23,007 nucleotides of DNA, taken from Folioceros fuciformis. Lineage: Eukaryota. Under the pieces are notes generated by a model. The model was given only the letters and a program-made list of their open reading frames with translations, was not told the DNA's origin and searched no databases. The number at the start of each line of letters is the position of its first letter. Positions within the stretch are counted from its first letter, which is position 1. Of this stretch, positions 2 through 22,758 are shown piece by piece. The position numbers and the translations under genes are program-made. The stretch lies in assembly GCA_049999805.1 (NCBI GenBank), contig JBNGIO010006285.1, forward strand, positions 62,001-85,007. The letters are read 5' to 3'.

Positions 2-3000
2 GCAGCGAGCTCCGTGTCATCAGATGGCGAGTGCGAAACGGAAAAGCGGCCTACCAACACCAGTCCACCTCCTTCCTTCCTTCAGCCGCAAGATCTGCAG
101 CAAAGGATTCCGGCCAGAGGCAAGCCCCAGTTCCCGCCCAGTTTCGAGCTGCTCAGCCAGTCTCGGGTGCTTGGTCAGAGACAACGGCCTGATGAGCCTC
201 CTCCGCGTCCTGCTGCGTTCCAGCGCGAGGAGGAAAGTAGGGAGGAGTCAGGAAGGCAGAGGTCGGAAAGGAGTGAGGACGAAGGGAGGGAGAGGGCAGA
301 TAGCTCTTCTTTACGGGAAGGAGTCGATGCTGCGCAATCTAAGGTGCTTGACCAGGCCAGGAGTAGGAAACTTGTGCATTTGCCTGCAGCTAGTCGGGAT
401 GATGTGGAAGTGGCTGGAGAATTCGAAGCAGGGTATGAGAAAAGGCACGATGTGGAGCAGGAGCAGAGATATAAGCGGCATGAACCTGAGACCACAGTCC
501 CTGATGTGGAACAGGTGAGCGACAAGGAGTGGGAGAAGGACATCGATCACCGGGATACGAAAGAGACTTCTGTAACTGCCATTCTTGTGGATGAAGGAGG
601 GAGGACACGGAATGAGCCTCCAGGAAGTGCACAGGGTCCTAGTTTTCGGTTCGATCCTGCTCTTCTTAAGATTGGTAGTATGGTGCCTCGCAGAGCGCCT
701 GTTCGCCAGGGCGTGAGGCAGAATCTTGGGCAATGGGGTGAATTGAGGCAAGGAGGAGCGTTGTCTCCTCCTCGTGGGTACGATGCCTCTTCATTGGGAT
801 TTTCATTTGAACCTCGTGCAGGTCAGGAGGTGCCTGAGCGTGAACGCCACACAGGCCGGTGGGATCATCATCCAAGTTCGTCCTCGTTGGTGTCGGAGTC
901 TGCTAGGAAAGAAGGCAGAACTTCTTACGAGCACGTCTACGAAGTGGGTGCTCAGGTGCCGGGGCACGGCAGTGAGATTCAGGTCAGTCCTGGTGGGGAG
1001 ACTGAAAGCCCTATGATGCCACTGCATGGAAAGGGCGATTCAGATCATGACGCTGATCTCGATAGGGAGCTTGCAGACTTAGAAGCTGAACTGGATGCAG
1101 ACTTAGCGAAGGGTGGGGAAGACGATGATTCGGAGATGCTCGCTGGTCGTCGTCTTCCGAATGTCAGTCGACTGTACAGTACTGCTGGACACGTCCGTTT
1201 TGCCGCCTCAGCAGATCCAGTCGTCGAACAACTGCCCACAAGCCTGTTCAACCTGCCAGCTGATTCAGAGGGGACTGCAGGGGAGAAGGAACTGGGCAAG
1301 CCGCAGGAACAGGGCTTGTCTATTCCTGTGGAACCTCAAGTTTCCCTTGATGCCTACGGATATGTACCTAAGCCTCCTGGAAGTGGGAAACCTGTCAAGG
1401 AGAAGAAGGAGAAGGTGAAAGACATAGTGAACCGAAGCACATCAGATGCTGTTGGTTCTGGAATTGACGTTTATGGGTATGGTTCTCGGGACAAGCCTGG
1501 CGAATTGTCTGGAGCATCCTCACAGGGCATGTCGATTCCTGGGGAATCTCCACTTCCCCTGGATGAGTTTGGAGATGCGCCTCTTGGAAGCGGGAAGCGT
1601 GTGAAGGAGAAGGTGACAGAAACCACGGCATCAGATGCCGCTGTTCCTGGAATTGATGTGTATATGTACTCTCGGGACAAGCCTGGTGAAGGGTATGGAG
1701 TTTCCTCACGGGTCGTGTCCATTCCTGGGGACGCTGAAGTTCACTTAGATGAATACGGTTTTGTTCCTACCCCTCCTGGCAGTGGGAGACTAGTGAAGGA
1801 GAAGGTGAACGATAAGCTGAAGAAAAGCACGACAGTAGATGTGGTTGCTTCTGGAGTTGATTTGTATGGGTTCAGTTCTCTGGACAAGCCTGGTGAATTG
1901 TACGAAGCTTCTTCACAGAGCGCGTCCATTCCTGAGGAGCCTCAAGTTTCTCTAGATGAGTACGGATATGCAGCTAACCCTCCTGGAAGTGAGAGGCCTA
2001 CGAAAGAGAAGAAAGAAAAGTTGAAAGATAAGGTGAAGAAAAGAACTCCATCGGAGGTCGCTGGTTCTGGAATTGATGTGTATGGGTTCGGTTCTTTGGA
2101 CAAGCCTGGTGAACTATGTGGATCTTCCTCACAGGGCGCGTCCATTCCTGGGGAGCCTCAAGTTCCCCTAGATGATGAGTGCGGGTATGATCCTGACCCT
2201 CGTGAAAGTGAGACACCTGTGAAGGATAGTGCGGAGAAGGTGGAAGGTAAGGTGAACATAATCTCGACATCAGGTGCCGCTGATTCTGGGTTAGATGCAT
2301 ACGGATATGCACCTAACCCTCCTCGAAGTGAGAGACCTGTGAAGCAGAAAAAGGAGAAGGAGAAGATTAAAAATAAGGTGAACAACAGCACAACAACCGA
2401 TCTGGCTGCTTCTGGTATTGATGTGTATGGATTTGGTTCTCCAGACAAGGCTGGTGAATTGTTTGGAGCTTCCTCACAGGTCGTGTCCATTTCTGGGGAA
2501 CCTCAAGTTCCCCTAGATGAGTACGGATATGCAACTGGCTCTCTTGGAAGTGAGAGACCTGTGAAGGAGAGGACGGAGAAGGTGGAAGATGAGGTGAACA
2601 TGAGCTCGACATCAGGTGCCGCTGATTCTGGATTAGATATGTACGGATATGCACCTAACCCTCCTCGAAGTGAGAGAACTGTGAAGCAGAAAAAGGAGAA
2701 GGAGAAGATAAAAAATAAGGTGAACAACAGCACAATATCCGAGCCGGCTGCTTCTGGTATTGATGTGTATGGATTTGGTTCTCCTGACAAGGCTGGTGAA
2801 TTGTTTGGAGCTTCCTCACAGGGCGTGTCCATTTCTGGGGAACCTCAAGTTCCCCTTGATGAGCACGGATATGCACCTGGCTCTCTTGGAAGTGAGAGAC
2901 CTGTGAAGGAGAGGACGGATAAGGTGGAAGATGAGGTGAACATGAGCTCGACATCAGGTGCCGCTGATTCTGGATTAGACGTGTACGGATATGCACCTAA

Positions 3001-6000
3001 CCCTCCTCGAAGTGAGAGACCTGTGAAGCAGAAAAAGGAGAAGGAGAAGATCAAACATGAGGTGAACAACAGCACAATATGCGATTCGGGTGTTTCTGGT
3101 ATTGATGTGTATGGGTTTGGTTCTACGGACAAGGCTGGTGAATTGTTTGGAGCGTCCTCACAGGGCGTGTACATTTCTGGGGAACCTCAAGTTCCCCTAC
3201 ATGAGCACGGATATGCACCTGACTCTCTTGGATGTGAGGGACCTGTGAAGGAGAGGACGGATAAGGTGGAAGATGAGGTGAACGTGAGCTCGACATCAGG
3301 TGCCGCGGATTCTGACTTAGATGTGTACGGATATGCACCTAACCCTCCTCGAAGTGAGAGACCTGGGAAGCAGAGAAAGGAGAAGATCAAATATGAGGTG
3401 AACAACGGCACAATATCCGAGCCGGGTGCTTCTGGTATTGATGTGTATGGGTTTGGTTCTCCTGACAAGGCTGGTGAATTGTTTGGATCGTCCTCACAGG
3501 GCTTGTCCATTCCTGGGGAACCTCAAGTTCCCCTACATGAGCATGGATATGCACGAGACCCTCCTGGAAGTGAGACACCTGTGAAGGAGAGGTCGGAGAA
3601 GGTGGAAGATGAGGTGAACATGAGCTCGACATCAGGTGCCGCTAACTCTGGGTTAGATGTGTATGGATATACACCTAACCCTCCTCGAACTGGGAGACCT
3701 GGGAAGCAGAGAAAGGAGAAGACGAAAAGTAAGGGGAACAACAGCACAATATCCGAGCGCAGTGCTTCTGGTATTGATGTGTATGGATTTAGTTCTCCAG
3801 ACAGGGCCGGTGAATTGTTTGGGGCTTCCTCACAGGGCGTGTCCATTTCTGGGAAGCCTGAAGTTCCCCCACATGAGTACGGATATGCTCGTGACCCTCC
3901 TGGCAGTGTGAAGGAGGAGGAGAAGCAGAAGAGGCAAGACAAGGTGAACAGCAGCGCAACATCAGGCCCGGTTGCGTCTGGAATTGATGTGTATGGGTTC
4001 GGTTCTCGGGACAAGCTTGGTAACTTGGTGAGAACTTCCTCGCAGGGCGTGTCCATCCCTGGGGACCCTCAAGTTCCCCTAGACGTGAATGGATGTCCAC
4101 CTAAAGCTTCTGGAAGTGAGGGACCTGTGAAGGAGGAACTGCATTCTGGAGAAGCCAAACTTTCCAACGTTTTGGAAGTCCCTCCGGAAGTTAAACGCTT
4201 CCCTAGCCTTCATTACCTTGATCACAGGAAGGCCGCCCGCGACAGAGCAGATCAAGACCAGATTGGTAGTACTCACAGTTTTCCGTTCTATGCTGATCAA
4301 TCAGCTGAAAAGATCGAAAAGAAGGACCAAGAGGGAGAGGTTCAAATAGGAAGGCTGCAGGATGGGAACCAACGGCCACCTAACGATTTTGGGCTTGACA
4401 GTAAGGAGCCACAGGCCGAGGTTCAACTGGAGAGGCCGCAGGACTTGAACCGGGGGCACGCTGATGTTTTATTGCTCGATGGAACTGCTCAATCGCGAAG
4501 GCAGAGTTTTGGAAGCGCTATAAATGTGAAGGACTCCAGAGAGGATCTTGCAGCCGAAGAGAATGTGGAGGGGACAAACCAGTCAGCCAATGACTTTCAG
4601 GGGAGTTTGTTGCACCGAGATGAGCAACATGCTTTTGCCTCTGCTAGTATTGCTTCATCTACATCTTTCCGTGTGTCCTCCCAGCTATCTCCAAACGTGG
4701 GAAAGCTGGTACACCGTCCCCAGGCCCACGATGGCCTCAGTGACGATGAACCAAAGGCAAACTACGTCAGTCAGCAGGTGGAAGAAGTCAAGGAGAAACA
4801 GAAGCCTTCAAGAGATTCTCAAGAAAGTTTTCACGACTCCTTTAACCCTTCTGCTTCAGTTTATGTGGAAATGTCTAGCTCTCTTCAGAGTCACACACAT
4901 GAGTCGGCCAGGATCCAGGAAGGAAAGGAACATAGTGAAGAAGTCGAGAAACCCTCTCTTACGCACCTTGATTCTTCTGCTCGGTTGCAACAGCAAACTG
5001 GTTTCACACCTTTCAGTCCCTATCCTGCCTATCACGCAGTCCTTGCATTTGGTGGGGAAGAGGCTCTGGACAGACTCAAGGAAGAGAGTGATGACAACTT
5101 GGCGGTTTCTGAACCAGCTTACCCTCCTATCATGCATCCCACGTTTGCTGTACCATCCGCCCCTCCTGAAGAACTGCTTCCTTCAGACAGTTCTCAATTT
5201 GGAAGTGTGTATCCTCCCCAGAGTGTTTATTCTCTTCACACCGCTTACCCTCCGCAGAATGTGTACCCCCCTACAAGTGTCTCGGCTGCCTATCCTCCTT
5301 ACCCAGCTCATCTAGCTGCCGTTGCCCAAACTCCCCCGCCTGTGTTTCCGGTTTCCAATGTGCTGTCTCCGAATGAAAGTGAGTCAGATTCTGATACTGA
5401 TGTTTCAACCTATCCTCCCCGTCGTCCAGTGGTGCAACAAGCATATCCTCCCAGCAAGCCCACTAGTGTTAGTGCTTCAGCTTCAACGTCATCCGGCAGT
5501 TTGACAAGGCCATCCTACGAGGGAGCAAGGCCTAACAGTATTGGAAGTAATGATGGGTACGCTGACATTGGCTTGGGAAATACATACGGCAGTGCTTATG
5601 TCAAGGATGAGAAGCGGAAGCAGCAGCAGCAAACATCAAGTTCCGCGTGGACAGTGGAGTATGCCGGAGCTCTTCCACCCTATCCTGGTGCATCACTCAG
5701 TGGTGGCGACTCTGGCTATGGTGCCTCAGCCCCCTCCTCCGATTATGGCAAGCATAAGGTGCAGCATATTCAGTTTGGCCAGCAGCAGCCTCACACTTCC
5801 GACTATCCCAAGCTGCATAGGCCACAAACTCCTGAGTATGGACAACATTCGACATCATCCTACAACAAGCCTGGATTATACCCTCCGGTGTACAGTCAGC
5901 CACAGGCACAGCCACCACTAAGGTATGAACAGGCTCAGGCTCAGGCGCCCCACTCAGGGTGTGCGCAGGTGGATGTGCCTCAGCAAGCTCAAGCACACGG

Positions 6001-6283
6001 TAATCCGTATGTGGTTGGTCCTCCGACGCAAGGCTACAGACCAACCTCTCCATGGCTACCGGCTACCCCTCAGCAAGCACAGCCTTATCAGAATTATGTC
6101 CAGCAACTCCCCGGTTACTCGTGGACAGTGCAACCAGCTGCCCCTGGGCATCATCAGCAGCCTAGTTATGGGTGGACAGGGCACCAATCCCATCCAAACC
6201 AGCACCAACGGCCTGGATATGCTGGAAGCAGGCCACCTTATGGACAACCCGGATATCCGCCACCCAACCCGTATTACTACTGA
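2..6283 (+). CDS. Very large intrinsically disordered repeat protein, 5'-truncated by the window (>2090 aa): acidic N-part, tandem YG-motif repeats, Y/P/Q/S-rich C-terminus; function unknown
   Basis: No stop in this frame from base 2 to TGA at 6281-6283. The GTG at 14 is not a real start because the frame is open upstream. All repeat-unit lengths are multiples of 3. No folded domain is recognisable by eye. Confidence 0.85.
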   Translation, partial: AASSVSSDGECETEKRPTNTSPPPSFLQPQDLQQRIPARGKPQFPPSFELLSQSRVLGQRQRPDEPPPRPAAFQREEESREESGRQRSERSEDEGRERADSSSLREGVDAAQSKVLDQARSRKLVHLPAASRDDVEVAGEFEAGYEKRHDVEQEQRYKRHEPETTVPDVEQVSDKEWEKDIDHRDTKETSVTAILVDEGGRTRNEPPGSAQGPSFRFDPALLKIGSMVPRRAPVRQGVRQNLGQWGELRQGGALSPPRGYDASSLGFSFEPRAGQEVPERERHTGRWDHHPSSSSLVSESARKEGRTSYEHVYEVGAQVPGHGSEIQVSPGGETESPMMPLHGKGDSDHDADLDRELADLEAELDADLAKGGEDDDSEMLAGRRLPNVSRLYSTAGHVRFAASADPVVEQLPTSLFNLPADSEGTAGEKELGKPQEQGLSIPVEPQVSLDAYGYVPKPPGSGKPVKEKKEKVKDIVNRSTSDAVGSGIDVYGYGSRDKPGELSGASSQGMSIPGESPLPLDEFGDAPLGSGKRVKEKVTETTASDAAVPGIDVYMYSRDKPGEGYGVSSRVVSIPGDAEVHLDEYGFVPTPPGSGRLVKEKVNDKLKKSTTVDVVASGVDLYGFSSLDKPGELYEASSQSASIPEEPQVSLDEYGYAANPPGSERPTKEKKEKLKDKVKKRTPSEVAGSGIDVYGFGSLDKPGELCGSSSQGASIPGEPQVPLDDECGYDPDPRESETPVKDSAEKVEGKVNIISTSGAADSGLDAYGYAPNPPRSERPVKQKKEKEKIKNKVNNSTTTDLAASGIDVYGFGSPDKAGELFGASSQVVSISGEPQVPLDEYGYATGSLGSERPVKERTEKVEDEVNMSSTSGAADSGLDMYGYAPNPPRSERTVKQKKEKEKIKNKVNNSTISEPAASGIDVYGFGSPDKAGELFGASSQGVSISGEPQVPLDEHGYAPGSLGSERPVKERTDKVEDEVNMSSTSGAADSGLDVYGYAPNPPRSERPVKQKKEKEKIKHEVNNSTICDSGVSGIDVYGFGSTDKAGELFGASSQGVYISGEPQVPLHEHGYAPDSLGCEGPVKERTDKVEDEVNVSSTSGAADSDLDVYGYAPNPPRSERPGKQRKEKIKYEVNNGTISEPGASGIDVYGFGSPDKAGELFGSSSQGLSIPGEPQVPLHEHGYARDPPGSETPVKERSEKVEDEVNMSSTSGAANSGLDVYGYTPNPPRTGRPGKQRKEKTKSKGNNSTISERSASGIDVYGFSSPDRAGELFGASSQGVSISGKPEVPPHEYGYARDPPGSVKEEEKQKRQDKVNSSATSGPVASGIDVYGFGSRDKLGNLVRTSSQGVSIPGDPQVPLDVNGCPPKASGSEGPVKEELHSGEAKLSNVLEVPPEVKRFPSLHYLDHRKAARDRADQDQIGSTHSFPFYADQSAEKIEKKDQEGEVQIGRLQDGNQRPPNDFGLDSKEPQAEVQLERPQDLNRGHADVLLLDGTAQSRRQSFGSAINVKDSREDLAAEENVEGTNQSANDFQGSLLHRDEQHAFASASIASSTSFRVSSQLSPNVGKLVHRPQAHDGLSDDEPKANYVSQQVEEVKEKQKPSRDSQESFHDSFNPSASVYVEMSSSLQSHTHESARIQEGKEHSEEVEKPSLTHLDSSARLQQQTGFTPFSPYPAYHAVLAFGGEEALDRLKEESDDNLAVSEPAYPPIMHPTFAVPSAPPEELLPSDSSQFGSVYPPQSVYSLHTAYPPQNVYPPTSVSAAYPPYPAHLAAVAQTPPPVFPVSNVLSPNESESDSDTDVSTYPPRRPVVQQAYPPSKPTSVSASASTSSGSLTRPSYEGARPNSIGSNDGYADIGLGNTYGSAYVKDEKRKQQQQTSSSAWTVEYAGALPPYPGASLSGGDSGYGASAPSSDYGKHKVQHIQFGQQQPHTSDYPKLHRPQTPEYGQHSTSSYNKPGLYPPVYSQPQAQPPLRYEQAQAQAPHSGCAQVDVPQQAQAHGNPYVVGPPTQGYRPTSPWLPATPQQAQPYQNYVQQLPGYSWTVQPAAPGHHQQPSYGWTGHQSHPNQHQRPGYAGSRPPYGQPGYPPPNPYYY
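1290..4140 (+). repeat. Coding tandem repeat array of about 10-11 units (short 62-72 aa units and long 112-115 aa units)
   Basis: Anchor GACAAG/GACAGG (DK/DR) at 1490, 1676, 1883, 2099, 2444, 2786, 3128, 3464, 3800, 4010; spacings 186, 207, 216, 345, 342, 342, 336, 336, 210 nt. Consensus SGIDVYGFGSxDKxGELxGxSSQGxSIxGEPQVPLDEYGYAxxPPGSERPVKE. Confidence 0.95.
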
Positions 6284-6476
6284 CGCTCGTCTCTGTGACG
6301 TTCCTGGTGCTTGTTGAGGGCAAATGTCTCTGTCCCCTTGAATCGTGAATTTCTCCAGCTTGTGTTGCGGTGCCACTGACCTGCTGTTTAGACTACTCTC
6401 ATCCAGAGTCCTGTTGTAATGTGCCGTATTCTAATGATAATCTCAAGAACAAATTCTCCAAAATTGGATGATCGGA

Positions 6477-6735
6477 TTTGGAATTCTTGCGGAGCTAGAC
6501 GGTAGGAAGTCTGCAAGCCAATTAAACGCGTAACACAGAATCTGTTCCGCCTCGCAGCACATCCGGCTGAAGGAATTTCCAACAAGCCGCGTGGATTGCA
6601 CTCTCGACTCGTCGAACTTGCTGTTTCCTGGACTCATAGTGACGGAGTTCAGCGCCTGTTACACAGCACGCAGATGCTGATGCAGCCGAAGCCTTACAAA
6701 ACCGAGTTCAGTGCAACAGCGAGGTTCAGCTCATG
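6477..6735 (-). pseudogene. Decayed partial duplicate of the neighbouring ENR gene (part of intron 2, exon 3, intron 3, start of exon 4)
   Basis: 6556-6735 aligns without gaps to 12072-12251 (offset 5516; about 136/180 identical by hand count). 6477-6514 aligns to 11992-12029. The exon-3 copy reads ALNSVTMSPGNSKFDESR versus [18 protein letters not shown], its donor is GC instead of GT, and the exon-4 copy has a TAG. Confidence 0.85.
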
Positions 6736-9700
6736 GATTGTGTGGCTGAAGCAAGTCTTGGCATAACCCTTCTGCGCTTTCCTTTTCGCACCATAGATGT
6801 AGCTGAATCAGGCAGCAAACGAGCGAAAAAGCTTTGGGGTTATGGAATGACGAGAAGGCTAGATGGTGTGAATGTGCGGGTGAAGCTGCAAATGCAAGTG
6901 GAAAGTCCTTGTTCCACTTCTACCTCGAGTGCACGGTATTTCCTCACTGCTTGCCTGTAGGCTCTCATGCGGTTGCTGCTGGATTAGCTAAGTGCTGACC
7001 GGTGATATCGACAGGGGCTTTAAGACGTTCTGCACCAAAGAATGGCTAGACGACGCTTTGGTTGCGTTGGTCCGAATGGACCAGCAAGGAAGAGTGCCAT
7101 CGGTGCTCATGTACAAGAAGCTGCTACAGGCCTGCATGAGAACCAAGGCCCTTGCTGAGACCAAGCAGGTACATGCCATTCTGAAAAAGCATAGATTGGA
7201 GTGCCACAGAGTTTTGGGGGAGCTTGTGGTGACCTCTCTGGTCAATGGTGGCAGCTTTGCAGACGGGTGTGAGGTGTTTCAAAGGTTGTCTCACCGATCC
7301 GTTTTGTCATGGACATCCGTAATTTCGGGCTACATCAACGTTGGACGACCCAGGGAGGCTCTTGCATGCTACGAACAGATGATACAGGATGGTGTGGAGC
7401 CCAACAAGTACACATTTGTCAGTTTGGTCAAAGCGTGTAGCAAGCTGGAAGATTTGGAGGAGGGCAGGCGGATTCATGTTGCCACTGTGAGACATGGATT
7501 TGAATCAGACATATTCGTTGCCAGCACTTTGGTTAGCATGTATGCCAAGTGCCGAAGCATTGGGGATGCACAGGTGGTGTTTGATGGATTGTCCCAGCGC
7601 AATGTGGTGGTTTGGAATGCAATCCTTGCAGCATATGGTCAGCAGGGCAGAGGAGAAGAGGCTCTGCAATTATATGAGCGAATGCGACGGGAAGGGCATG
7701 ATCCGGACTCGCGCACCTTTGTCAGTGCTCTTCAAGCCTGTGGCAGCGTTGCGGAAAAGGAGGAAAGTATGCTTCTGGACGGGCAACATTTGAAGGTGGA
7801 GGCTTTGCAGAAGGGGAAGGAAGTACATGCTGAAACCATCCGAATGGGCTTTCAATCAGATGAGTTTGTCGTAGGTACTTTGGTCAGTATGTACGCAAAA
7901 TGTGGGAGTTTCGTCGATGCCCAGCAAGTGTTCCATCTTGTGTCAAGAAACCAGGTGATAGCGTGGACCGCAATGCTCACAGCACATGCTCAGCAGGGCC
8001 AAGCGGAACTGGCTTTGCAAATATATCAACGGATGCGAGAGGAAGGGGTGAGGCTAGAGTCACGAGCCTTTATCAGTGCTCTCCAAGCATGTTGCACCCT
8101 GGCAGAGAGTGAGGAAGGTGTTCTGCTGGATGGACAAAAAGTGAAGGTGACATCATTACACGTGGGGAAGGGAGTGCATGCTGGAGCCACAGAAATGGGT
8201 TTCCAGGCAGACATCCTCGTTGGAAACACTTTGGTCAGCACGTTTGCAAAGTGTGGGAGCATACCTGATGCGTGCGAGGTGTTCAATGAACTGCCCAAAA
8301 AAGATGTAGTGTCATGGACTGCGATGATTACAGCCTTTGCTCAGCGGGGGCATGGAGAGCAAGCTCTGCTGCTATTCTGGACGATGCAATGCGAAGTCGG
8401 GATAAGTCCAAATGAATGGACGTTTGTCAGTGCCCTCCAAGCATGCTGCAGCCTAGCAGATACAGAAGAAGGGGTTCTAACATACGGGGAAAATGTGAAG
8501 GTGGATTCGCTGCAAAAAGGTAAAAAAGTACATGCTGCAGCTACTGAGAGTGGTTTTGATTCAGATGGATTTGTTGGTTGCTCTTTGGTCAGTATGTATG
8601 CAAAGAGTGGGAGCATCAGGGATGCCGAACAGATATTCGATGATACGGGCCAACGCAGTCTGGTATTATGGAATGTGATGATAACATCGTATGCTGAGCA
8701 CAACCAAGGAGCAAGGGCCTGGCAGACCTACTTACAAATGCAACAAGAAGGGGTGGAACCAGACGTTCGGACATTTGTCAGTGCACTCCAAGCATGTGGC
8801 TCCAATGCAGACTCTGAGAAAGGTGCTTATATGGACAGGCAAGTTGTGAAGGTAGATGCACTCAGGCAAGCCAAGGTGATCCACGCGAAAGCTGCAAGCC
8901 TTGGCGTTGCATCAGACATGTTTCTCAGTAGCGTGCTGCTCAGCACCTATGCAAGGTGCGGAAGCCTCAGGGATGCGGAACTGGTCTTTGACAGTTTGTT
9001 GCTGCGTGATGTGGTTTCATGGACGGTCATGATGGGAGCCTACGTTCAGCAAGGGCAAGGGCAGAAGGTGTTGCAACTCTATGCCGGGATGCAAGCAGCC
9101 GGTTTGCAGCTAGATGAGGCAACTTTTGTGGCTGTCCTGGAAGCCTGTAGCATCACAGGTGCCTTGGACATCTGCGTGCACACTCACCAAACGATCATAG
9201 AGACTGGATATGACTGCACAATGTCTGTGGCAAACAGCCTGATTCATGCCTATGGCAAATGTGGGAGCATGGTGGATGCACAACACGTGTTCGAGTCACT
9301 CTCTCACCCGGATGTGGTGTCCTGGACAGCACTGATTGCTGGGTACGCAAGACTAGGAGACTACAGCACCAGCAAACAACGCTTCAAGGAAATGTGCCTC
9401 GCAGGCACGAACCCAAATGCAGTCACATTTCTTGCACTGCTCAGTTCATGCAGTCATGCTGGCTTGGTGGACGAAGGGTTGCAGCTTTTTGAGAGTATGA
9501 CTCGCGACCATGGCCTGTCGGCCACCTTGGAGCACTATGCTTGTGTGATTGACCTTGTCGGTCGTGCAGGACTGCTGAGCAAGGCCGCAGAATTGCTTGT
9601 CCAAATGCCCATGCAGCCTGATCTGCCTGTATGGATGTGTCTGCTGGCTGCCTGCCGCAAACACGGCAACGCGGAGCTGGGAAGGCGAGCCTTTAATGCT

Positions 9701-10039
9701 GCAGTGGCATTAGAACCGACGCATGCTCCGGCTTACTTGCTCATGTCGAACATCTACGCTGATGCCGGCTTGTGGGAGCGTGCAAAGGAAATTGAAGACC
9801 TAAGGCGCAGATCTGTTCCCTGGCAGCAGCCCGGCAAGAGCTGGATCGAGCACGAGGAAGAGATGCACACATTCTTGGTACGAGACAAGAGGCACAGAAA
9901 GGAGGCATTATTGTATACCTTGCTGACAGATTTAAGCAAAGATGTGTACCTATTTCAATCTCGGAAACGACAAGTGAACGAACTGGCAACTTGTAATGAT
10001 CTCCAAATCGGCTTGATGCTACAAAATCCATCATGTTAG
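6733..10039 (+). CDS. PLS-class pentatricopeptide repeat protein with E1/E2 and PG-box/E+ end and no full DYW domain; putative organellar RNA-editing specificity factor. Model join(6733..6935,7015..10039), about 1075 aa
   Basis: P-L-S triplets (VVSWTAMI / TFVSALQAC / TLVSMYAKCGS), typical terminal TFLALLSSCSHAGLVDEG...HYACVIDLVGRAG, E motifs (VWMCLLAACRKHGN, AYLLMSNIYADAGLW) and PG box QPGKSWIE...HTFLVRD; no HxE/CxxC. The main ORF 6992-10039 is firm. Exon 1 is inferred from a 79-nt phase-matched GT..AG intron at 6936-7014 with a CTGAC branch-like motif; the alternative start is ATG 7076. Confidence 0.9.
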
Positions 10040-10537
10040 CTATCATGGTATAGCAATCTTTCTCTGAACATCTCCACTCATAAACTGAAATATGATATGT
10101 ACGTTTCAAAGTCAGTACAATCTAAAGAACATGTCTTTGAAAAAAGGAATCTTTTCCAATTTTCGTCTTTGTGGTTAATGGGAGATTGATAGGAATGCCC
10201 TTCTAGCCGCTCAGTGTCTAACTTAAGGACATCTTGTTTGAAACGAGATGGTGTTCTCATTAGAAAGACCTAGCTTGAAAGGGAAGGGTTTCTCGTCAGC
10301 CCCCGACCCAAAGGCAAAATGGAAAGGCGTAGGCTAGATTAGGGGGCAGAGAGGGCCGATATTATGTATGTTTCTGTAGGAAATACGGCCTCCATGGTTT
10401 AAAAACTTATACAAATCATTTAAAAGCAAAAGGCTACTATGGGGGTAGACTTGGTGTGCCATAAACAAACCGCTCAAAGGTGGGGGGTCACGTGGACAAA
10501 ACTGTCTTTCTCGAGACGAGAATTTGCACTCTCTTGT

Positions 10538-12726
10538 TTAAGCTGCGACCGTCGACTTCTCCGCAGATGGAGGTACCGCGACTTTGGACACAGTTGGGCT
10601 GTCCACTGCCAGACCCATAGCATGCAGACCGTTGTCCACGTAGATTACAGATCCGGTAATGGCAGATGCCAGGTTTGATGCAAGGAACGCTGCTGTATTT
10701 CCGACCTCATCTGTGTCATCAGTCCAAGTATTAGATAGCGTCACAAGAAAATTAACTCCAGAAAAGTGTTTTGCGTGCACATTTTGCGCTCACCAGCATC
10801 AAGCTCCTTCTGCAAAGGAGCATTCGCAGTGGAGTAGTTGATCATGTCATCGATGAAACCAATTGCTTTCGCTGCCCTACTTCGCAAAGGCCCTGAAAAT
10901 TTCAGCCATTGTCAAGCAACCGGGCACAACCACATTTAAAACTTCAAAATTACGTATCGTCTATTCGAATACCTGCCGATATAGTATTGACACGGATGTT
11001 GTACTTTCTCCCAGCTTCGAAGGCAAGCAACTGCAGAGCAAGGTAAATGCAATGAAGAAGCTCAATGTACCTGAAAGGTGAAGAGCCAAATACACAAAGA
11101 TTACATACCCTCGTGTCACTCTCCAAAGCTGCCTTTGCTGAGCTCATTCCACCCCCATATCTGCAGGCAGCTCAAAAACTTGGTAAGAACCAGAAGGCTT
11201 GCATTGGCTGGTGGAGGGGATGTGGGGGAGGAAGGGACAGTTGGGGGAGAAGGAGACGGGGAGCAATGGACTCCAAAGGACACTGACCCCGGAATAATCC
11301 GCTCGGAAGCAAGATAAGTGAGCGAGATGGACGCACCGCCTGTCGTAATCCCACAGGCATCACACTCGTTGCTGACAGCCTGAAGGACGTCTTTCACGAT
11401 CAAGCGCTAGGATTAAACAAATCTGCAAACCTGGGTTTATAAAGGGCGCAAAGTGCTTCAGCAACGACACGTATGAGTAACTCGAGGCGGAGACGGCCGC
11501 AAGATAGCCCTTCCTTGAAGTTTCGAGGAGGGGTTTGGTCACCTGTCCAGAAGCAGCCACATGAGCAGAAAGGCCCAAGACCGGAGAGTCACCAGATGCA
11601 AATCATGCAAGCAGGCTCACCTCTGGTCCGTTAGCCAATGAGTGCACCAGGATGTCAATGCTGCCATAATCCTTCTTCACCCGGTCAGCAACTTCCTACA
11701 CACATAGCACGCAACAGGACTATCATCAATCCTTCAAACAGCCCATGCTTCCGTGAAAGAGACTGGAATCAATACTATTCTTTTATGAGCACAAGAGTTC
11801 AGTTCCTGCACCCTCACCTGAACAGTCCAACCTTCCGCGCCAGCATATCTCTTGTTCTTCAAGATCTGAGAAACAGAAGCAGCACATTCAGATCTACCTG
11901 CAGCAAGATAGCAGGTGGAGAGAAGCTAACCTGCACCGACCTCTTCAGGCACGTCGTCCAGAGTATCAAACACAGCATCCAAGGGGTAGACTTTGGCAAT
12001 CTCTAGGAGCGACCCGTTAGCAAGCCTGCCAAAGGCACTCAAAAGCATGAGACGCCGTAACATCCCCCGAAAGCACCTTCCACTGAACCGATTGCCAACA
12101 AAATGCGTGGCTTACACTCTGGAGTCGTCGAACTTGCCGCGCCTCAGACTCGTTTCAAAGATATTCAGCGCCTGCAACACAACATGCCGATGCTGATGCA
12201 GCCCGAGCCTCGCAGAACCGAATTCAGTGCAACAGCGAAGTTCAGTTCATGCCACGCACAGGCACCCAGGTCCCGACAAGAATTTCGGCTCCAGCTGCAG
12301 CCAGGGCCTTGGCGATGGCCCATCCGAAGCCTTGATCGTCAGCGATGCCTGCAATGAAGGCCCTCTTGCCTACAGGTTCCCCGAGCCTGCGTGAGCCGGA
12401 CATGCATGCATGCACCAAACCACAACGAGCAGTAAGCGCGACAAGAGCAGCAAGATTTTGTCACCTCGCAGGTCGATTTGCAGCCCGGCCGGAGGCGATC
12501 CCGTGCCCGCCCCGTTGCCAGACGCCACCACCTGCAGCCGCGACTTGTGCTGCGCAGCTGCGGCGATGCTGCCTGTCGACCTCACCGAGGATTTGAGGGA
12601 CAGCGAGCCCGGGAAGATGGAGAGCTTGTCGGAAGACACAGCTGCCAGAACTCTGCAGCAGAGCTTCGGCTGAGTTGAGGCAGACGCAGCCAACATGGAC
12701 GACGACAATGCGGCTGCGGACGCCAT
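10538..12726 (-). CDS. ENR: Plastid enoyl-[acyl-carrier-protein] reductase (FabI/MOD1 type), 12 coding exons, 393 aa
   Basis: Exons 12726-12465, 12369-12260, 12171-12116, 12025-11941, 11865-11818, 11695-11621, 11542-11431, 11339-11288, 11160-11109, 11030-10973, 10892-10794, 10710-10538. All introns are GT-AG, 75-127 nt, and phases are consistent (1182 nt total). Motifs [82 protein letters not shown]. Ser/Ala-rich transit peptide. Possible 5'UTR intron at 12817-12728. Confidence 0.97.
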
Positions 12727-13771
12727 CCTGCGGCGCATCAGCAGCGGCGGCCCATCAGCTTTGCGTGTCCGCGCAGGTGAGCTCACAAGAAAATGCGGGC
12801 GCCCGGTTCTCGCTCACCCGCTACGGCGCTAGCTGGAAGATGTTGCTAACAAGGGACGCACAGCACACCACAGCACAGCACGGCGCAGGTGCAGGGGGCG
12901 CACTGGTGGAAAGCCGTTCAAAGCACTACTAGCATGGCATTCGCAATAGTCCATTCTCCTTCCCCTTCCCCGACTTGTCTACATCCGAAGAAAAATACAC
13001 ATCACCTACCTACGTGCGTGTCAATTCCATCAAAATCTCGCTTAGCGAGACACAAAAACACATCGTTTTATCATCCGAGTGAGCTTGAGGGAAAAGAAAG
13101 CAACATCTGGAGCTGAACATGAACATACTGTAGAACACAGGACATGGGTGGAACCAGGGTAAGTCAGCGCCTGAGAGTCGACTGTGTATTTCTTGCTATC
13201 CAGCAGGAAAGAAGCGACTGTGGATGCAGCACGACGTCGGAGTACAACAAAAAATGACACTGGAATCACGAGGAGAGGAAGCCTGGACACTGGAGAACTG
13301 AGGAAAAAAGAGTGGACGTCCTATTCTAGCTGGCTAATGGCTGCCCATGTGCTTGGGTCCACTCTCAGAGAAGGTTCTGATGCAGAGGCCAAGGGTGGGA
13401 CCGTGGCACTGGCGAAAGAAAGCAAGGCAGATAATCTCTCAAATGAGAACAGTAAGAGCCCTATGCCACCTCCAGACTCTTAAGCTGCAGTTTGATCCTT
13501 CAGTTGCAACTCATCTGTTCAAGTCATTGGCCAAAACATTGCATCCGGCCTGACTTCTCACATAAAACTGTCGTTGAGGTAAGTCAGGGCCTTCACGTGG
13601 TTGTAAGATGCACAAGGACGCACCCTCGAATGCAGACAAGGCTCAAGGGGCTGGGCCCTCCCGATTTTGTCAAAATAGCACTTGCCTTTGAACTAGGGGT
13701 CCTGGAAAAGATGAGATGTTCCATTTGCCTTCATCGATAAGGCTTCTAGGAGCAGGTCGGTCTCCATCAGC

Positions 13772-15360
13772 TCATGAGTGTACCACCAATCCGTTGTTGC
13801 CGGAAACGCTGCGGGAGTGATTGTGGTCGCCTTCATAAGTAACAATCAGCATAGAGGGATTTTCCAATGACCGCTCCACATGCTTTCGGGCAGGGCAGCC
13901 TCTGATGCTGCTGCACTTGTAATACCCTCTGCAAAAGAATATAGTAAAAGTGTTAAATGAGAAACGAAAACGGAAGCTTGCTGCTCTGTGACCCACTCAA
14001 GAGTGAAAGCGAAGTTTGCGCATCCCGACAAACGACATATAACAATGCATGGCATACAAGGGCATCCTACAACTAGATTTCCAGAGCCGCGCGAGAAGCA
14101 TTCAAGAAATGCAACAGATCAAGACAAGCCACAACTTCATTCAGCTACTTTTCTCGGACAAGCTGGCGGAGTTGCCGACTGACCTGGGATGAGGGGAACC
14201 CTTGATAGGCTTTTGACCATATTTCCTCCACGAGAAGTCATCCGGAGGGATGTCGGCAAGTTTGTTGCTGATTGCAGGGACGACTGTAGTTCGCTTGATC
14301 TTCTGCTTCCTGGAAACACAACCAAGAGTTAACAGATGAGGAGACGGTAGACAAAGACAGATAAGGGTCCAAACTAGAGGCGAACACAAGAGCTGGAACA
14401 GAGGACATAGAAATACACCAAACACCTAAGAAGGCAAATCTCAACAAATCCAGAAAAGGTAGGCGAGGAGATGACAAATGTGCAAACTGAAGCCACGAAA
14501 GGCAGGCAGAAGTACCTTCGCTTCGAGCAGTGGCAGCGTCCGGGAGTGGAACATTTGCCTCCGGCTTCATCCGACTTACCCATGCACTTCTTCTTGCCAG
14601 ACCCTTGACTGCTGCGGCCACGGCTAGGAGGCATGGCCGCCGAGTGGGACAGAAGTGGCTTGTCATTGGCAACACTGCCATCCATGCTAAGGGATGACAA
14701 GAACGACTTTGATGTGGTCGATAAAGGGTTTGAGGTCAGGGAGTGATCGAAGCTGAGAACCGGTTTCCCGGCCATCATGTCCTGCTGGGTATGCAATTGC
14801 GGGAATTGAATCTTGCGGGCCTGATTCTGCAACGTCATCTGCTGCATCTGATGGATATGCTGCAGCTGCTGCTGAAGATGCAGCTGCTGTAATTGAGAGT
14901 GCTGCTGCAATTGAGGATGCTGCTGCGCAGCTACCTCCGCAGCACCATTGCTTCCACCACCAGAAGAACAGCTCTGAGACGGCATAAACGGCAGTGCCTT
15001 CAGTGGAAGCACATCCGACGAGGTCGGGGAGTAAGGGGACGCCGCTAGCGTGTTCGCCGCCGGCTCCAGCTGCCCGAACTCCGATCCCTCAAACCCCGTC
15101 GACGGCGCAGCCTGCGGCCCCATGGGGCCCCGCCTGAAGCGCGCGTGCCCCGTTCTGCTCAACAGCGCCACCACCTTCTTGAACTTGGAGATGGCCGCCC
15201 CCGCAACTGTCCCGCAATCCTGCTGCAAATCCTGGTGTGGCCGCGCCTGCGACCATATTTGCAGCAGCCTCTGCGCACTCTCCAACCCTGCTCTCGTCGC
15301 CTCCTGCACATCCTGGACCCGCTCCGTCTTGCTGCTGCAGTAATACTCCATCACCTCCAT
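13772..15360 (-). CDS. WRKY: Group IId WRKY transcription factor, 3 exons (15360-14516, 14309-14184, 13928-13772), 375 aa
   Basis: N-terminal [12 protein letters not shown] (calmodulin-binding C-motif), [11 protein letters not shown] (HARF motif), polyQ tract, zinc cluster [45 protein letters not shown]...YEGDHNH, with the typical intron after PR. Confidence 0.97.
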
Positions 15361-22065: not shown

Positions 22066-22758
22066 ATGGCAGCATCGTCAAGCACACCTACCTTTACCTC
22101 ATAACTCAAAGAGAAGGATAGGTTCAAGGGGTCCGGCTACACTGTGTGGAGAGTTAGGATGAAGGCCACCTTGCTGGCCAGGGGAGTCTGGATCGTTGTT
22201 GATAGGACCTACCCCAAACTTAACCCCAACGCCAGTCCTACTCCCACAGCCGATGAAATTGCCAAGTGGGAACAACATAATGCCATTGCTCTTGCCCTGA
22301 TTATCGGTGGGCTGGACGCAGACTTGGTCCCAGAGGTAGAGTACCTCACATCTGCACATGGCATATGGGACCAGTTAGAAAAGACATACAAAATCCATAA
22401 CATAATGACACTATGTGTGGTCAGGCAAGAATTCTTCTCCCTCAAAATGAAAGAAGGAGAAAAGGTGTCCTCACATGTCAGCAGGTTTCAGCACCTACAT
22501 GCCCAGCTCACTCGATAACAGGATAGAAGATGTCAGAGGTGGACGCTATCGCCCAACTGCGGAGTAGCCTTCCTGCTTCCTACCAAACCTTTGTTACGAG
22601 CCAAAACGGCCCGATACGCGCTGTCGTAGCTGCCTCCGGTCAAACAGTGACTATCACCTTGGAGGAGGTGATTGGTGCACTATTCCAGGAGGAGCAGAGT
22701 CGAGCCTTCTCACATGCTTTCAGGAACAAGGGAGAGAAGGCATTAGCTACAAACTTCC
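22066..22758 (+). pseudogene. Ty1/copia gag (UBN2/Retrotran_gag_2-type) pseudogene, truncated before the zinc knuckle
   Basis: ATG 22066, stop at 22102, then FKGSGYTVWRVRMKATLLARGVW...SAHGIWDQLEKTY...FFSLKMKEGEKVSSHVSRF, a frameshift near 22515, then LRSSLPASYQTFV...TLEEVIGALFQEEQ. Confidence 0.85.

Follow-up and report, generated by a model that had tools for sequence, protein, structure and literature searches.

In plants, pieces of genes that still carry their introns can be captured by transposons such as Pack-MULEs and Helitrons, moved as DNA and sometimes transcribed as part of chimeric RNAs. Templated patches known as filler DNA have been described at repaired double-strand breaks, with p2/p1, wx, bz1 and R-r of maize among the cases in the portion of that report drawn on here (PMC2686159). 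Upstream alternative starts account for 29.4% of newly arisen plastid transit peptides in the part of a survey used here, which also discusses exon shuffling (PMC7456531), and the PPR family has been described as expanding by retrotransposition (cited in PMC3858427), the usual setting for the question of how new copies come by their 5' parts. We describe here a locus in a 23,007-nucleotide stretch of Folioceros fuciformis contig JBNGIO010006285.1 (positions 62,001 to 85,007, hereafter the window), in which the 5' end of a PPR gene contains a diverged antisense copy of part of the neighboring gene for plastid enoyl-ACP reductase (ENR). We consider it likely that this ENR fragment was copied as DNA and now forms, in antisense orientation, the 5' leader of the PPR gene, which is spliced at 6935/7015.

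The PPR family of land plants has grown to hundreds of genes, and every gene added to it has to obtain a promoter, a start codon and an import signal. Since the origin of these 5' parts can seldom be traced, documented single loci where it can are of value. At this locus the 5' untranslated region (UTR), and possibly the first ATG, can be assigned to its source with base precision, and the exon is confirmed by RNA. The reuse of stray duplicated DNA as a UTR or first exon and the extension of a protein from an upstream ATG are established ideas, which this locus illustrates and does not change.

The locus resembles maize filler DNA in being a short copy of a nearby site that has no transposon ends and can alter gene structure (PMC2686159). 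In the cases given in that portion of the report the patch lies in an intron, whereas here it lies in a 5' leader, and we infer the mechanism here. As with the nascent transit peptides of PMC7456531, an upstream in-frame ATG adds residues before an organelle protein; unlike the cases in the part of the survey used here, this ATG can be traced to an antisense copy of a neighbor's intron, and its use and role in targeting are putative. The likeness to PPR retrotransposition, as referred to in PMC3858427, lies in a long intronless body that needs a 5' end, with a single intron here right behind the leader exon. In contrast, nothing marks this PPR gene as a retrocopy, and the ENR piece keeps its introns. 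The locus differs from Pack-MULE and Helitron fragments in having neither terminal repeats nor a target-site duplication, and the only second copy known is a local one.

The ENR-derived copy and its source

When positions 6300-7100 were compared with the window by blastn, 6556-6735 matched 12072-12251 over 180 bp without gaps and in plus/plus orientation (75.6% identical, E = 7e-32), with no second non-self match at E < 0.1. A gapped local alignment widened this core to 6477-6735 against 11992-12251. Global alignment of the whole copy paired 253 positions, 193 of them identical (76%) and 60 mismatched, beside 13 gap letters; the Jukes-Cantor distance between the copy and its ENR source is 0.285, and the longest exact run common to the two is 16 nt. 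The left extension (6477-6529 against 11992-12046) is colinear with the core and scored 24, against 15.4 +/- 2.3 for shuffled sequences, 2 of 300 of which reached that score. The right end of the alignment is the ATG at 6733-6735.

The copy delimited by the blastn and gapped alignments (6477..6735, ENR sense on the minus strand) divides roughly into parts of exon 4 (6477-6510), intron 3 (6511-6599), exon 3 (6600-6655) and intron 2 (6656-6735). The source segment, 11992..12251 on the minus strand, has its exon borders set by RNA contigs and comprises 11992-12025 of exon 4 (11941-12025), intron 3 (12026-12115), exon 3 (12116-12171) and 12172-12251 of intron 2 (12172-12259). Measured by these borders, the copy takes in intron 3 (90 nt) and exon 3 (56 nt) in full, together with 80 of intron 2's 88 nt and a 34-nt part of exon 4. 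Because the introns are colinear in the copy, it is a DNA-level duplicate and not a retrocopy, and because it has the minus-strand orientation of ENR, it is antisense to the PPR gene. These alignments bear out the earlier note, which had described a diverged copy of ENR intron 2/exon 3/intron 3/exon 4 that keeps its introns and is antisense to the PPR gene, beginning at 6477 and finishing on the ATG at 6733. The same note had seen a weak match of 6745-6777 to ENR exon 2, which proved to be at chance level (score 11, against 8.4 +/- 1.5 for shuffles, and attained by 47 of 500 shuffles).

The source gene occupies 10538..12726 on the minus strand, with 12 coding exons, 393 codons and an ATG at 12724-12726. 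The exon borders come from two sets of assembled contigs, one from the same organism (X1) and one from a relative (X2) that differs by ~5% in the PPR body (38/725 letters). Twelve GT-AG introns, 11 of them within ENR coding sequence and one in its 5'UTR, are spliced out of the X1 contig, and the X2 contigs skip the same 11 coding-region introns; both sets are thereby shown to contain RNA. The spliced ENR frame is intact over its 393 codons, the exon 2 peptide matches the plant ENR structures 1cwu/1d7o/1eno (2.3e-16 to 2.6e-16), and the last-exon peptide matches 1eno (1.9e-10). Judged by these matches, the gene is an intact plastid enoyl-ACP reductase gene of the FabI type. ENR is the source of the fragment, because it is intact while exon 3 in the copy has decayed to 38/56 identical positions, with only the ends of the exon 3 peptide kept. 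Identity in the other core segments is 31/44 for the intron 3 part and 67/80 for the intron 2 part.

The intron-2-derived segment (6656-6735) is therefore better kept than the rest of the core (84% versus 68-70%; Fisher p = 0.024 in a single uncorrected test). An intronic small RNA as the reason for this identity was considered and rejected on the folding scores, which gave no signal for either copy on either strand (z -0.24 to 0.98), and the segment had no Rfam match. A side possibility is that both copies have kept this segment as a functional element.

The source lies 5516 bp from the copy in the same orientation. Such proximity and orientation would be expected if the copy were all that is left of a complete tandem duplicate of ENR that had decayed, with its remainder now occupied by the PPR gene and the gene upstream of it. 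We find this very unlikely. No other ENR remnant was found in the window beyond chance level (blastn and tblastx, E <= 1), in exons or in introns, and similarity falls abruptly at the edges of the copy: just past 6735 only 1 of 7 positions is identical, and only 28 of 110 when ENR exon 2 is compared with the offset kept. The positions that exons 5-12 of such a duplicate would have held are taken by the 3'UTR and coding frame of the upstream gene, and those of exons 1-2 by PPR exon 1.

A copia-type retrotransposon gag sequence at 22144-22518 on the plus strand (PF14223, E = 2.4e-23) shows that mobile elements are present in the window, and the fragment could in principle belong to a dispersed family, for example as part of a gene that a Pack-MULE or Helitron had taken up. 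This appears highly improbable. We found no terminal inverted or direct repeats and no target-site duplication around 6477-6735, with only 10-16-nt pairs at chance level in 6250-7050. Within the 23-kb window there are just two copies of the fragment, the second being the source 5.5 kb away in the same orientation. At >=85% likeness, the only X1 sequence on 6602-6868 is record 2, at a depth of 3.93 that corresponds to one contig.

On the preferred explanation, ~260 bp of ENR, from 5.5 kb away, was copied as DNA into the short spacer between the 3' end of the upstream gene and the PPR gene, most likely in the course of double-strand-break repair that would have left it there as templated filler. 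A filler patch fits because the sequence is a short, intron-bearing copy of a nearby site without transposon ends. The window and X2 differ by ~5-9% in PPR coding sequence. The ~0.29 substitutions per site between patch and source exceed this several-fold, and the patch therefore probably predates the split of the window's organism and the X2 relative; if it is older than that split, the relative should carry the patch too.

The spliced 5' exon of the PPR gene

X1 record 2 (448 nt, depth 3.93) matches 6580-6934 with 0 differences and sets the minimum RNA extent of PPR exon 1 at 6580..6935 on the plus strand. Its further 93 letters were assigned to exon 2 because a depth of exactly 3.93 recurs at 7052, 7054, 7075 and 7087. 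From the length and depth of this record we infer an X1 joint of 6934/6935 to 7015, which is not one of the 15 joints listed, with 203 more beyond the listing. In X2 a joint connects 6936 to 7020 with four letters between, in a contig that covers 6833-6936 and 7020-7744. The intron (6936..7014, plus strand) is 79 nt long, with GT at 6936, AG at 7013-7014 and CTGAC 15-19 nt before the acceptor. Exon 2 (7015..10039, plus strand) encodes a PLS-type PPR array and an E motif, and X1 record 3 (7251-9271) and X2 records 6, 8 and 9 are colinear with it.

The PPR reading frame itself runs from 6992 to 10039 on the plus strand and is closed upstream by a stop at 6989-6991. The intron is in phase, and the spliced open reading frame (ORF) has 1075 codons with a single terminal stop. 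The proposal that the exon containing ATG 6733 is joined in phase over 6936-7014 thus holds, on spliced contigs from two organisms, with the X1 joint derived as described above.

The X1 contig reaches 6580, which lies inside the ENR copy, and the copy is therefore part of PPR exon 1. Positions 6580-6732 are PPR 5'UTR made of antisense ENR copy. The PPR gene being on the other strand, its transcript carries the patch in antisense at the 5' side of exon 1, which RNA contigs show to be spliced (6935|7015) to the PPR frame; the patch accounts for the known 5'UTR (6580-6732) and ends on the first in-frame ATG. The earlier note had gone further and proposed that promoter, 5'UTR, start codon and transit peptide all came from ENR DNA. 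The 5'UTR part of this stands, with the contig reaching 6580. The transit-peptide part fails, since the sequence on the 3' side of 6735 is no more like ENR than chance allows.

That note had also named a start at ATG 7076, without splicing, as the case that would overturn its model. Residues encoded by 7016-7075 are aligned to a conserved first PPR-like motif of paralogs, with 49 of 120 alignments starting no later than query residue 12 and 8 of 120 no earlier than residue 29. These paralog alignments, together with the stop at 6989-6991, rule out ATG 7076 as the start, and the splice is seen in contigs. The practical value of the analysis is a corrected gene model, in which the PPR gene has a spliced 5' exon and does not begin at ATG 7076.

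The arrangement of transcripts bears on the promoter. The 3'UTR of the upstream gene (6284..6463, plus strand) ends where X1 record 1 (depth 182.8) terminates, at 6463, and the X1 bin-depth arithmetic places nothing on 6464-6579. From 6463 to ATG 6733 there are 269 nt, 256 of them ENR-derived. With the upstream contig ending at 6463 and the first PPR contig beginning at 6580, a promoter in the copy is plausible by position. Should the PPR gene have a promoter of its own and start transcription in this gap, ENR-derived DNA would contain that start and some or all of the core promoter. Judged by position, the patch probably holds the PPR transcription start, with the caution that a depth of 3.9 cannot define the 5' end of the transcript.

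Several points weigh against a transcribed ENR patch as the PPR leader. The transcript evidence consists of assembled contigs, not reads, and the kind of run is recorded as 'RNA?'. The contigs carry neither transcription start nor strand, the plus strand of the PPR transcript being taken from the GT-AG borders; the depth of the PPR contig is only 3.93, and the X1 joint was reached indirectly. Read-through from the upstream gene, which is ~47 times deeper, may be the source of the long 5' leader. The count of two fragment copies is limited to the 23-kb window. No orthologous locus or empty site was found in the protein and metagenome searches. Finally, the filler patches in the portion of PMC2686159 drawn on here measure 1-131 bp, against ~260 bp at this locus.

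Start codon and leader peptide

The 5' exon contains several ATGs on the plus strand. The first two, at 6674 and 6680, were both inherited from antisense ENR intron 2; they have weak context and open an upstream ORF (6674..6766; 30 and 28 codons) that is out of frame and overlaps ATG 6733. The first in-frame ATG (6733..6735), which coincides with the final three bases of the copy, has the context cagctcATGga, with a pyrimidine at -3 and G at +4. Downstream of it, ATG 6797 is out of frame and opens a one-codon ORF, and ATG 6842, out of frame and in strong context, opens a two-codon ORF that overlaps ATG 6847. ATG 6847..6849 is in frame with a purine at -3 (tatggaATGac) and would give a 30-codon leader. 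ATGs 6863 and 6872 are out of frame with two- and three-codon ORFs, and ATG 6892 is in frame. Translation could begin at 6733 or at 6847, which we hold to be equally plausible with neither quite reaching an even chance; initiation at both, or at another site, is less likely.

On one reading, it is from the patch that the PPR gene obtained a promoter and 5'UTR as well as a working start at 6733 and with it a targeting extension at the N-terminus, and the gene needed the patch to function. In its favor, 256 of the 269 nt between 6463 and ATG 6733 are ENR-derived, and the first in-frame ATG lies within the X1 contig matching 6580-6934, in a frame that is open for 67 codons to the splice donor and is in phase across the splice. 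The codon-usage score of 6733-6846 (0.016 per codon, attained by 7% of 54 non-coding windows) is the best of the six frames and near that of the ENR transit-peptide region (0.04). The first PPR motif lies 0-65 residues from the N-terminus of paralogs in 47 of 60 rows listed, those with a non-negative offset, which is a loose range in that many paralog models are intron-blind calls. Against this reading, the codon-usage test favors stop-free frames by construction. The weak-context ATGs 6674 and 6680 open an overlapping out-of-frame ORF ahead of 6733, which itself has a pyrimidine at -3 where 6847 has a purine; four acidic residues fall within the first 25 of the leader; and the leader peptide itself is not ENR-derived. 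We regard this reading as doubtful. A related reading, in which the patch is no passenger but holds the transcription start and core promoter and also supplies the working start codon, and break repair templated on the neighbor's introns would thus be the origin of both the expression and the N-terminal extension of an organelle-targeted protein, we consider unlikely.

A further point against a needed patch comes from the relative. The X2 contig is >=85% like the window only from 6833, 14 nt before ATG 6847, despite having ~173 more letters at its 5' end. Over 6833-6936 it shows 6 differences in 104, a rate equal to that of the PPR body. This sharp fall in likeness upstream of 6833 favors the view that the patch is a neutral passenger, which landed in an existing spacer or 5'UTR and does nothing, with translation beginning at 6847 or at another ATG past 6733. 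Such a start is also supported by the better initiation context of ATG 6847, by the codon-usage score of 6847-6933 (0.253 per codon, a level that none of 54 non-coding windows attains), which is clearly that of coding sequence whereas 6733-6846 is ambiguous, and by a leader that would begin Met-Thr-Arg-Arg and contain fewer acidic residues. On the other side, the two-codon ORF of the strong-context ATG 6842 overlaps ATG 6847, and 69 codons upstream of 6847 are open, for which our arithmetic gives a chance of ~4% under (61/64)^69. The point at which X2 ceases to align may also reflect an indel or a different exon and not missing constraint. A passenger patch is a real possibility that nevertheless falls short of being probable.

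The X2 likeness stops just after an AG at 6830-6831, and in the bins 6335-6601 and 6602-6868 X2 has a little depth that is left unexplained. The unplaced 5' part of the X2 contig may be a different 5' exon, the result of an indel or deletion, or plainly diverged sequence, and the small bin depth may be a further piece.

If translation begins at 6733, the leader has 67 residues, of which 10 are K/R, 6 D/E and 13 S/T. The earlier note had called it basic and Ser-rich and likened it to a targeting peptide. It is indeed mildly basic and rich in Ser and Thr; the likeness is weakened by its acidic start, since four acidic residues in the first 25 are unusual for plant targeting peptides. A search with the 67-aa leader peptide against a large protein database, limited to 'longer' lengths, gave 41 candidates, none with E <= 0.01, and comparison with the leaders of paralogs gave short matches at chance level only (best E = 1.3). 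A leader without relatives fits a fast-evolving targeting peptide and a non-coding sequence equally well. Its peptide-coding part, 6736-6935, is on the alignments not derived from ENR.

The PPR protein and neighboring genes

The PPR protein matches the Pfam families PPR_2 (E = 3.6e-97) and PPR (E = 7e-85), with an E_motif (PF20431, E = 2.9e-10) at residues 891-953. No DYW domain (PF14432) was matched at E <= 0.01, and no DYW-like frame was apparent by eye in 9800-10900. By these domains it is a PLS-class PPR protein of the E subgroup and a candidate organellar RNA-editing specificity factor, a class that includes specificity factors dependent on a deaminase supplied in trans. To see in the locus the birth of a new editing factor, as had been suggested, is to over-reach: the protein has an E motif without a DYW deaminase domain, and no orthologous empty site was found.

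A search with the whole PPR protein returned 1904 matches at E <= 1e-50. Among the 120 listed, the best identity is 49%, the closest named relatives come from a lycophyte and ferns (<=49% identity), and there is neither an orthologue nor the window's own protein. Residues 1-250 gave 23 matches, the best at 44%, in a search limited to 'shorter' lengths. In metagenome scans an exact 34-mer from exon 1 had 0 matches, and the PPR protein had 16 pattern matches, none of them confirmed. Two further runs, X3 and X4, yielded short PPR-motif pieces only.

On the ENR side, an intron of the 5'UTR (~12727-12816, 90 nt) lies directly before the ATG-bearing exon; it is seen in X1, and the X2 contig has indels there. 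An unstranded X1 contig of 4948 nt is colinear from PPR coding sequence at 9244, over the stops at 10039 and 10538, through all ENR exons. Since the contig spans 9244-10710, the convergent PPR and ENR transcripts overlap or abut at their 3' ends. Antisense regulation of ENR by the PPR leader was considered and judged unlikely, the longest shared exact run being the 16 nt given above.

The upstream gene (2..6283, plus strand) is a single open frame of 2093 codons that is open at the start of the window and ends with a stop at 6281-6283. Within it a 342-nt unit is repeated in tandem ~5.8 times (89% matches), and its tail is rich in Pro, Gln and Tyr; no Pfam family was found above the cut-off. 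Its expression is strong in X1 (contig depth 182.8), where window positions 5000-6463 correspond to letters 1387-2850 of the 2854 in record 1. No X2 contig matched 5000-6334 at >=85% likeness.

An Rfam scan of the whole window gave 0 matches. The window has an overall eukaryotic, plant-like character, with GT-AG introns of 75-127 nt, a GC content of ~0.5, and the ENR and PPR genes. On the minus strand, 14374-15360 contains a frame with a weak match, below the cut-off, to Plant_zn_clust (E = 2.1e-4), a domain of some WRKY factors.

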